DNA of 64,000 nt from an uncultured Candidatus Rokubacteria bacterium. GTDB lineage: Bacteria; Methylomirabilota; Methylomirabilia; Rokubacteriales; DASRDR01. Of the stretch, positions 49,235 to 51,079 are shown in pieces. Every line of letters begins with the position of its first letter. The stretch's first letter is position 1. Below the pieces are notes generated by a model that was given only the letters and a program-made list of their open reading frames with translations, did no database searches and was not told the DNA's origin. The stretch is taken from positions 64,001-128,000 of the forward strand of contig CAWDVE010000021.1 of assembly GCA_963805625.1 (NCBI GenBank). The letters run 5' to 3'. The position numbers were made by a program, and so were the translations under genes.

Positions 49235-49696
49235 CTAGCCGCGTCCCGCGGCGGCGGCCGCCTTCCGCGCCTTCTTCGCTTCTTTGCCCTTGGGCTCGGT
49301 GGACTTCTTGCCCTTGTCGGCCTTTTCCTTGGGAGCCGCGGGCCGGTCGACCAACTCCAGGATCGCCACCGGGGCGGCGTCGCCGCGGCGCGTCCCCAGC
49401 TGGAGGATCCGGGTGTACCCGCCCCGCCGGTCCGCGTAGCGGGCGCCGACCGTGTCGAAGAGCCGGCGCACGACCACCACGTCCGGCACCAGGGTGAGCG
49501 CCTGCCGTCGCGCGTGGAGGGTGTCCTCCTTCGCGAGGGTGACCAGGTGGTCCGCCAACGGTCGGACCGCTTTCGCCTTGGCCAGCGTGGTCGTAATCCG
49601 CTCGTGGGTGAACAGCGCCGCCAGGAGGTTCCGGAACAGGGCCCAGCGGTGAGCCGTCAGCCGGCCCAGCTTGGAGCCGCCGCGCTTGTGTCTCAT
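49235..49696 (-). CDS. rplQ: 50S ribosomal protein L17
   Basis: MRHKR..KLGR..HR, GGYTRI, RRGDAA. Confidence 0.97.
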   Translation of the reverse strand: MRHKRGGSKLGRLTAHRWALFRNLLAALFTHERITTTLAKAKAVRPLADHLVTLAKEDTLHARRQALTLVPDVVVVRRLFDTVGARYADRRGGYTRILQLGTRRGDAAPVAILELVDRPAAPKEKADKGKKSTEPKGKEAKKARKAAAAAGRG

Positions 49697-50442
49697 GCGT
49701 CCCTCGTGGCCTCCACGGAGGCCGGGGTCGCCGTCGGCTCGTCGTCCTCCTCCTCCGCGCCCGCGGGCGTGAACAGGTCGAAGTGGTCGCGGAGAAGCTT
49801 CGACGCCTGGAGGAAGGCATGGTCCGGCCCGATGCTACCGTCCGTCGCGATCTCGACCACAAGCTTCTCGTAGTCGGTGATGTTACCGAGCCGCGACATC
49901 TCGACGTGGTAGTTCACGCGCCGGATCGGCGAGAACGCCGCGTCGAGGCCGATCGCCCCGGACGGGATTGCATCCCCGTGCCGGTCGGCGGAGACGTACC
50001 CCCGGCCGGCGCGGATGCCGATGTCCAGCGTGAGCTTCCCTCCGGCCGCCACGGTGGCGAGGTGCAGGTCGGGCGTCACCACCCCGATGCCCTCCCCGGT
50101 GAAGTCGGCACCGGTCGCGGCCCGCGGCCCCCGCACCTCGAGGTGAGCGCTCCCCGTCTCGGCGTTGCCGGCAAGCCGCACCACCATCTTCTTCAGGTTG
50201 AGCAAGAGGTGCGCGAGATCCTCCTCGACCCCGGAGATGCGCTCGGCCCCGGCGCTCACCCCGGCGACCTTGACCCACACCGGGGCGGTCCCCGGAATCG
50301 CCGAGAGCAGCACCCGGCGGAGCGAGCCGCCGACCGTCAGTGCGTAGCCCTTCTCGAACGGCTCGGCCGTCATGCGGCCAAAAGTCGCCGTCAAGTCTTC
50401 CCATTCAATGCGACGTGGACGTTGGAACATCAACCGCGGCAT
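49693..50442 (-). CDS. rpoA: RNA polymerase alpha subunit, NTD only (no alpha-CTD), divergent
   Basis: Lies between rpsD and rplQ; EPFEKGY..SLRRVLLS, GRGYV, DAAFSP, TDYEKL, TDGS; only 249 aa. Confidence 0.9.
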   Translation of the reverse strand: MPRLMFQRPRRIEWEDLTATFGRMTAEPFEKGYALTVGGSLRRVLLSAIPGTAPVWVKVAGVSAGAERISGVEEDLAHLLLNLKKMVVRLAGNAETGSAHLEVRGPRAATGADFTGEGIGVVTPDLHLATVAAGGKLTLDIGIRAGRGYVSADRHGDAIPSGAIGLDAAFSPIRRVNYHVEMSRLGNITDYEKLVVEIATDGSIGPDHAFLQASKLLRDHFDLFTPAGAEEEDDEPTATPASVEATRDA

Positions 50443-50455
50443 GCGCCCGCCCCTC

Positions 50456-51079
50456 TTACTTCGAGTACAGCTCGACGATGAGCTGCTCTTGCACCGGAAT
50501 CTGGATGTCGTCGCGGAGCGGCAGGCTCCGGACGGTCCCCGACTTTCCGGGGGCCGCCAGCTCGAGCCACTGGGGCACGTGGCCCCGACCGGCCGACAGG
50601 TTGTCGGCCACCCGCTCCTGGAGCTTCGAGGTCGTCCGCAGCTGCACCTGGTCGCCCACGCGCACCAGGAACGACGGGACCGACACGCGGCGCCCGCTCA
50701 CCTGGAAATGACCGTGCGCCACCATCTGACGCGCCTCCGCCCGGGAGGCGGCGAAGCCCAGCCGGAAGACCACGTTGTCGAGCCGTCGCTCGAGCAGCCG
50801 CAGCAGGTTCTCGCCCGTCACGCCCTTCTGGCCGTCCGCCTGGGCGAAGTAGCGCCGGAACTGACCCTCGAGCAGGCCGTAGATGCGCTTGGCCTTCTGC
50901 TTCTCACGCAGCTGCTGCCCGTAGGCCGACTGCTTGGACCGGCCCAGGCCATGCTGGCCCGGCGGGTAGTTGCGGCGCTCGATGGCGCACTTGTCCGTGA
51001 AGCAGCGGGAGCCCTTCAGGAAGAGCTTCAGTCCCTCCCGCCGGCACAGGCGGCAGACCGCATCGTTGTACCTTGCCAA
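50456..51079 (-). CDS. rpsD: 30S ribosomal protein S4 (zinc-binding type)
   Basis: [27 protein letters not shown]. Confidence 0.97.

Follow-up and report, generated by a model that had tools for sequence, protein, structure and literature searches.

What becomes of a bacterial RNA polymerase when the gene for its alpha subunit, standing at its usual place in a ribosomal operon, ends before the C-terminal domain (CTD)? The question is raised by rpoA in a stretch of 64,000 nucleotides (the window; positions 64,001 to 128,000 of contig CAWDVE010000021.1, assembly GCA_963805625.1) from an uncultured Candidatus Rokubacteria bacterium. The original prediction, made from the letters of the window, offered two answers: the short protein might be a subunit specialised for the beta'-side (alphaII) position with a second rpoA elsewhere in the genome, or the polymerase of this lineage might have no alpha-CTD at all. 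The analysis presented here points to the first. The enzyme most probably contains an oriented alpha heterodimer, in which the product of a stand-alone rpoA would sit on beta and the tail-less operon product on beta', leaving one alpha-CTD per enzyme.

In the operon protein, Pfam recognises the dimerisation and insert domains of the N-terminal domain (NTD; RNA_pol_L, PF01193, E 9e-19, and RNA_pol_A_bac, PF01000, E 5e-16), and RNA_pol_A_CTD (PF03118) is not found at E<=0.1. The protein scores 203 bits against the TIGR02027 cut-off of 228. The open reading frame of 249 amino acids (aa) ends in ..DHFDLFTPAGAEEEDDEPTATPASVEATRDA before the stop, and its TGA (49695-49693) shares the letters ATGA with the rplQ start codon (49696-49694), the predicted overlap being preceded by GAGGG as a ribosome-binding site. 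The motifs GGSLRR, GVSAGA, LNLK, GRGY and TDYEKL read as first described, as does DAAFSP. Contigs from an RNA run (X15) also fall on the gene, one of them at 49683-49967, contigs from RNA libraries being no proof of transcription.

The anticipated second rpoA is present on the same contig, 88 kb away, and carries a CTD. The genome, 7.27 Mb in 28 contigs, yields two rpoA matches, one CTD match, one rpoB and one rpoC. Both alpha copies carry PF01000, only the stand-alone one carries PF03118, and the two proteins are 39% identical over 233 columns. Six matches to Crp-type helix-turn-helix proteins were found in this genome, three of them over the cut-off. A loss of Crp-type regulators alongside the CTD was considered and is not seen, with 6 and 6 matches in two genomes with a CTD-less operon copy vs 4, 4 and 9 in three others.

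The evidence for a division of labour comes from an alignment to E. coli RpoA, whose numbering is used below, of 59 operon and 59 stand-alone copies from the order and 18 single copies from sister orders. Same-locus duplicates, the frameshifted stand-alone gene of genome G010, a truncated gene (G068), a foreign-looking alpha (G018), an order-type contig (G046) and the second copy of G055 were left out of the motif counts. HE[FY]S, at positions 66-69, is present in 18/18 sister-order and 58/59 stand-alone proteins and in none of the 59 operon proteins. The combination R191, G193, D197 and Y198 follows the opposite distribution (18/18, 0/59 and 59/59, respectively), and the whole R191-Y198 loop varies in sequence and length across all 59 stand-alone copies. 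K86 is found in every sister-order protein and in 53 of the 59 operon proteins, and in a single stand-alone one, R being the usual replacement. Both docking loops thus occur on one polypeptide in 18/18 sister-order proteins and in neither set of paralogs (0/59 each). With regard to the best 120 homologs listed for the operon protein, HE[FY] is present in none, and K86 and R191 in all. Finally, E. coli and the outgroup share the same residue at 70 NTD positions, of which both paralogs keep 34 and neither keeps 8, while 9 are retained only by the stand-alone copy (including H66, E67, S69 and D77) and 7 only by the operon copy (including L83, K86, R191, T196 and D197).

Footprints on E. coli alpha show that beta protects residues 30-55 and 65-75 and beta' residues 175-185 and 195-210, and the K86A substitution blocks binding of beta' (PMC3294249); R191C alpha assembles, but unstably (PMC8092217). 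Because of the motif counts and the published footprints, each paralog appears to have lost one of the two docking loops while retaining the other. The proposed alphaII specialisation of the operon copy holds in so far as its beta-side loop is lost, its beta'-side motifs are kept and the second copy has the mirror-image loss; the heterodimer and its orientation are what we infer from these sequences. The degenerate NTD surface noted at the outset stands in part. The loss of HE[FY]S is fixed, whereas the change from N41 to G is polymorphic: N41 occurs in 18/18 sister-order, 46/59 stand-alone and 41/59 operon copies, in 8 of the 19 operon copies of this genome's family and in 70 of the best 120 homologs. 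Since it is not fixed, it is not part of the specialisation, and it was rejected as a marker of it. R45 is kept nearly throughout (18/18 sister-order, 59/59 stand-alone and 58/59 operon proteins).

The beta-side loss is most extreme in the operon alpha of genome G204 (L100:1205-1915, family f4), a protein of 237 aa without a CTD, in which an in-frame deletion removes the whole 63-72 loop; this is a single genome, 84% complete. The dimer core also differs between the paralogs, with L43 replaced by F or Y and A28 by I, V or L in the stand-alone copy and F35 by Y in the operon copy, changes that would suit a preferred heterodimer. Order-specific sequence was additionally observed in beta at ~750-770 (L156; a K-K-x-D-P-V loop) and in beta' at ~553-588 (L157), segments that we take to lie near the alpha contacts; co-adaptation with two alphas is a possible explanation.

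Table 1. Coordinates of the two rpoA genes, the neighbouring operon genes and the segments of the operon protein discussed in the text
Feature	Position	Strand	Remarks
operon rpoA paralog, 249 aa	50442..49693	minus	NTD and acidic linker remnant, no CTD; putative beta'-side (alphaII) subunit
residues 39-43 (GSLRR)	50314..50328	minus	N41-equivalent is G (polymorphic); R45-equivalent kept
residues 64-67 (AGAE)	50242..50253	minus	place of E. coli H66-E67-Y68-S69; beta-side loop motif lost
residues 81-84 (LNLK)	50191..50202	minus	E. coli L83-K86; beta'-assembly motif kept
residues 184-191 (RLGNITDY)	49870..49893	minus	E. coli R191-L198; beta'-side loop kept
residues 226-249	49696..49767	minus	acidic linker remnant at expected CTD junction; G[AT]EE[ED][ED] in 113/120 homologs
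rplQ (L17)	49235..49696	minus	start overlaps rpoA stop (ATGA)
rpsD (S4)	50456..51079	minus	directly upstream of operon rpoA; marks canonical alpha operon
stand-alone rpoA, 330 aa	G000:C21:25502-26494	minus	outside window, between comEC and mltG; CTD present

Two alphas occur across the order, a state that predates the loss of the CTD, and that loss is restricted to two sister families. The operon copies of families f2 and f3 keep the domain in 39/39 cases (323-347 aa), and it is absent from 19/19 operon copies of f1, the family of this genome, and from the single f4 copy. A tree of S4, L17 and S11 from 25 genomes places f1 and f4 as sisters (93/87), as does the stand-alone alpha tree (99/91), in which case a single loss is enough; in the operon-alpha tree f4 falls elsewhere (96/83), which would require two. 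The stand-alone CTD is canonical in 58/59 copies, the remaining one being truncated by a contig end. In the operon CTD of f2 and f3, E261, T263, V264, C269 and L290 are replaced, and residues 258-264 form what is presumably the sigma-4-facing surface. R265, N294, G296 and K298 are each kept in 39/39 of these copies, and R265, N294 and K298 have been named as UP-element contacts (PMC5101437).

The distribution of the pair was surveyed in 200 genomes of the phylum that are at least 80% complete, 145 in the order and 55 in sister orders. At least two rpoA matches are found in 118 of the 145 order genomes, one in 24 and none in 3, and the sister orders give one match in 49/55, two in 5 and none in 1; these are matches rather than copy numbers, and related genomes are not independent. 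The five sister-order genomes with two matches comprise three with split or partial genes, one with an order-type contig in a foreign bin and one with a true second gene (G055). Nine of the 24 order genomes with a single match were tested, together with G013. Where only the stand-alone copy is present, rplQ is also absent (5/5 tested). Where only the operon copy is present (5 tested), mltG is missing from four genomes, and the fifth carries it at one contig end and a CTD scrap at another. The single-copy genomes of the order therefore look like assembly gaps. Several contigs are likely to be mis-binned, namely L026 (G018:C358), with a foreign-looking alpha in an order genome, L102 (G046:C124), where an operon alpha of the order's type lies in a sister-order bin, and L044, where a bin titled Actinomycetes holds a frameshifted operon of that type.

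The second rpoA of G055 (L220:14049-15101 on G055:C3, minus strand; 351 aa) lies 4 kb downstream of the canonical operon gene, in the order rpsD-rpoA-rplQ-larA-like-rplF-rpsK-rpoA2-EF-G-like-rimP. It has retained HEF and K86 and lost the R191-Y198 loop, as has the stand-alone copy of the order. Orthology with that copy is rejected by the approximately unbiased test (p=0.021, for a group picked after an earlier tree had been seen), so that it is probably a separate, convergent duplicate and possibly a convergent early stage. Apart from its normal rpoB, G055 also has an open frame of 1566 aa (G055:C95:641-2344, plus strand; L226) with three partial rpoB matches (positions 468-1237), which might be an RNA polymerase subunit of a phage-type or mobile kind.

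Trees of the two paralogs were built with the trait columns removed and with two distant sequences as the outgroup. Each paralog forms one clade (100/99), the two clades are sisters (94/89) on long stems, and their subtrees largely mirror each other. The sister relationship, recovered without the trait columns, favours a duplication in the ancestor of the order over transfer, with thin outgroup sampling. Both genes are under purifying selection: the ratio of nonsynonymous to synonymous substitutions (dN/dS), computed with a Nei-Gojobori script and open to bias from the high GC content, spans 0.07-0.41 in 18 pairs of operon copies and 0.02-0.23 in 16 pairs of stand-alone copies, the former evolving faster. 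In the operon CTD of f2, dN is well below dS in 6/6 pairs. A TATAnT -10 box lies at most 100 bases upstream of 57/59 stand-alone genes, whereas 200 shuffles gave 1.8 on average. In this genome, a scan for consensus promoters found only the divergent one of mltG, the TATAAT box of the stand-alone rpoA having no consensus -35 element. The mltG promoter, near the sigma-70 consensus (TTGACA-17-TAGAAT, L006:10594-10622 on G000:C21, plus strand), stands back to back with that box.

AlphaFold2 folds both NTDs as alpha subunits, with a mean predicted local distance difference test (pLDDT) score of 90 for the operon protein (residues 2-229) and 81 for the stand-alone one. In Foldseek, the operon model matches alpha subunits with a template modelling (TM) score of ~0.85. 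In all four Protein Data Bank (PDB) entries that list both alpha chains (8i23, 8f1j, 9mse and 4jk1), the stand-alone model is closer to the first chain than to the second (TM 0.78-0.80 vs 0.69-0.71), and the operon model has a lower root-mean-square deviation to the second chain in 2/2 (4oin, 2.6 vs 3.7; 3dxj, 3.4 vs 3.8). If first and second chains are named by the convention that we assume, this preference is a weak hint from the models that agrees with the proposed orientation.

These observations would fit the following course of events. In the ancestor of the order, rpoA would have been duplicated; the operon copy would then have lost the beta-side H66-S69 loop, and the relocated copy the beta'-side R191-Y198 loop, together with changes at L83 and K86. 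Such complementary losses would make both alphas necessary. The operon CTD would first have drifted, keeping its DNA-contact residues while its 258-264 face changed, and would then have been deleted once, in the ancestor of the two sister families. The resulting core would consist of the stand-alone alpha on beta, the operon alpha on beta', and beta, beta' and omega, with the sole alpha-CTD of the enzyme tethered on the beta side. Each enzyme would be able to make one UP-element subsite or activator contact, always through the beta-side alpha, and promoters that need contacts with two CTDs would not be served as they are in E. coli.

Several points weigh against this arrangement. R45, the residue that orients heterodimers in E. 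coli and Francisella, is kept in both copies. Surfaces were mapped with published footprints and known structures rather than computed contacts. Within the beta' footprint, the stand-alone copy retains N at 184 and S at 210 better than the operon copy does, and the asymmetric sites E17, L43, A112, D118, D120 and I223 lie outside the footprints or in the dimer core. Since K86-to-R is conservative and E. coli R191C assembles, if unstably, a homodimer of the stand-alone alpha may be partly functional. The structural hint comes from one model of each protein, an assumed chain naming and a 62-71 loop with pLDDT <50, with no ordinary alpha as a control, and some A chains behave like second chains. 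Lastly, the support for the sister relationship of the paralogs is just under the star mark, with only two distant outgroup sequences.

The possible partial function of a stand-alone homodimer leads to the rival that survives best, although we regard it as unlikely: the stand-alone alpha would form a working homodimer with two CTDs, and the operon copy would be an optional subunit for the beta' position that makes a second, one-tailed form of the enzyme, the ratio of the two tuning the use of UP elements and activators. The retention of R45 and most core residues in both copies, the conservative nature of K86R, the assembly of E. coli alpha with R191C, the separate promoters of the two genes (that of the operon and the stand-alone -10 box) and the weak homodimer activity of Francisella alpha1 (PMC3294249) would all be in keeping with it. 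It is harder to reconcile with a R191-Y198 loop that is variable as a whole in 59/59 stand-alone copies, with purifying selection on the operon copy everywhere and with the finding that no tested genome has one copy while the neighbourhood of its partner is assembled.

A heterodimer that is unoriented or reversed, with beta and beta' adapted to the changed surfaces, is more doubtful still and seems highly improbable. The shared R45 and the few order-specific beta and beta' changes near the segments we take to contact alpha would allow it, but apart from those changes the beta segments show high conservation relative to the sister orders with a single copy, the losses in the alphas are near-absolute and complementary, and one operon copy (G204) has had the entire 63-72 loop deleted.

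Frameshifts in rpo genes of long-read metagenome-assembled genomes of this group, and the faster evolution of the operon copy, could suggest that the short gene was misassembled or is a pseudogene in decay whose place the stand-alone copy has taken, but this is refuted. The rpoA/rplQ stop/start junction is crossed by contigs from three public DNA runs belonging to three studies (X1 49413-49739, X2 49407-49818 and X6 49616-49758), no listed piece covering the whole stretch; as all three are free of gaps at the junction, no deletion has been assembled in. Nor do close relatives carry a full-length canonical rpoA at the locus, as the absence of the CTD, already claimed for this gene, extends to 19/19 operon copies examined in the family, 18 of them ending at 247-255 aa and one entering the rplQ frame. 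The best 120 homologs listed are 206-268 aa long and carry PF03118 in no case, dN/dS is well under 1 and the beta'-side motifs are invariant. The copy that enters the rplQ frame, at 402 aa, is that of G010 (L025, L145), whose stand-alone rpoA is split over three frames; these breaks are probably long-read indel errors, like those in rpoB and rpoC of several relatives. The other branch of the original prediction, a polymerase without any alpha-CTD, or with one from a split-off gene, has precedents in symbionts with reduced genomes and in Parcubacteria (PMC8321222) but is likewise refuted by the canonical CTD of the stand-alone rpoA and by the search for a free-standing CTD gene, in which this genome gave one PF03118 match and 21 family genomes gave none that was both strong and free-standing. 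A weak second match (24 bits) was seen in a frame of 265 aa in G017 (G017:C121:2474-2557, plus strand).

The closest known system to the proposed heterodimer is that of Francisella, whose alpha1/alpha2 heterodimer has been demonstrated in vitro (Mukhamedyarov et al. 2011, PMC3294249). In both cases there are two rpoA paralogs on long stem branches, one in the ribosomal operon and the other elsewhere, with an asymmetric loss of contacts to the large subunits and, here probably, a lineage-specific duplication. Francisella, however, has R45 as its orientation marker (Arg46 in alpha1, Gln42 in alpha2) and keeps K86 and the CTD in both copies, whereas here R45 is present in both, the split lies at the 66-69 and 191-198 loops and at K86, and one copy has no CTD; the pair also belongs to a different phylum, spans a whole order and has an independent origin. 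The assignment of the operon copy is reversed as well, since a Francisella figure legend gives it as RpoA1, the presumed beta binder (PMC3294249), and here it is the presumed beta' binder. Chloroflexus, Streptomyces avermitilis and two identical duplications of recent origin are the cases named in a survey of 1055 genomes (PMC3294249). In the literature listings, no studied bacterial alpha heterodimer is named besides that of Francisella. The structure of its polymerase is reportedly PDB 6WMP, with the alphas as chains A and B.

In the Rpo3-Rpo11 pair, the small subunit lacks the insert domain and neither partner has the bacterial CTD. The proposed Rokubacterial arrangement would share with archaeal RpoD/RpoL (Rpo3/Rpo11) and eukaryotic Rpb3/Rpb11 and AC40/AC19 an asymmetric pair with a smaller, reduced subunit on the non-beta side (PMC3294249; PMC13374769), but it is a non-homologous event, with PF01000 in both copies and a bacterial CTD on one. 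Compared with the canonical E. coli RpoA (TIGR02027) and that of the sister orders, the fold, the position in rpsK-rpsD-rpoA-rplQ and the core R44, R45, GRGY, D174 and SP are the same, but the operon copy falls under the TIGR02027 cut-off, lacks PF03118 and HE[FY]S, and has no partner in its genome with both loops. [quoted passage not shown] In those reduced genomes it was lost from the sole alpha, whereas here the genome has 7.3 Mb, a paralog carries a canonical CTD and Crp-type helix-turn-helix proteins are retained. The available portions of a 2026 review treat bacteria as homodimeric and do not mention Francisella or Rokubacteria (PMC13374769). No report of a Rokubacteria or Methylomirabilota rpoA pair was found in the literature searched, outside which most subscription journals lie.

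The locus is a real, lineage-wide variant of a kind known from one genus, and what is new are the orientation markers and the lost CTD. In practice, rpoA does not serve as a single-copy marker within the order. The alpha homodimer counts as universal among bacteria, Francisella being the one studied exception, and a second, independent, order-wide case with other markers shows which surfaces each alpha position needs. With a single CTD held on the beta side, and in a genome of 7 Mb, such a natural enzyme would allow tests of the number of CTDs that complex regulation requires and of whether the alphaI- and alphaII-CTDs are interchangeable. It seems reasonably likely that, in an abundant, free-living soil order, the RNA polymerase has been rebuilt independently around two unlike alphas that form an obligate, oriented pair, and that the genomes of the order preserve the steps: a reciprocal loss of loops across the order, a half-degenerate second CTD in two families, the full loss of that CTD in two others and the deletion of the beta-side loop in one. 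They would then form a graded series from a symmetric scaffold to the asymmetric one of archaea and eukaryotes. If true, bacteria would possess a naturally one-tailed RNA polymerase and would have replayed the transition from a homodimer to Rpo3/Rpo11.
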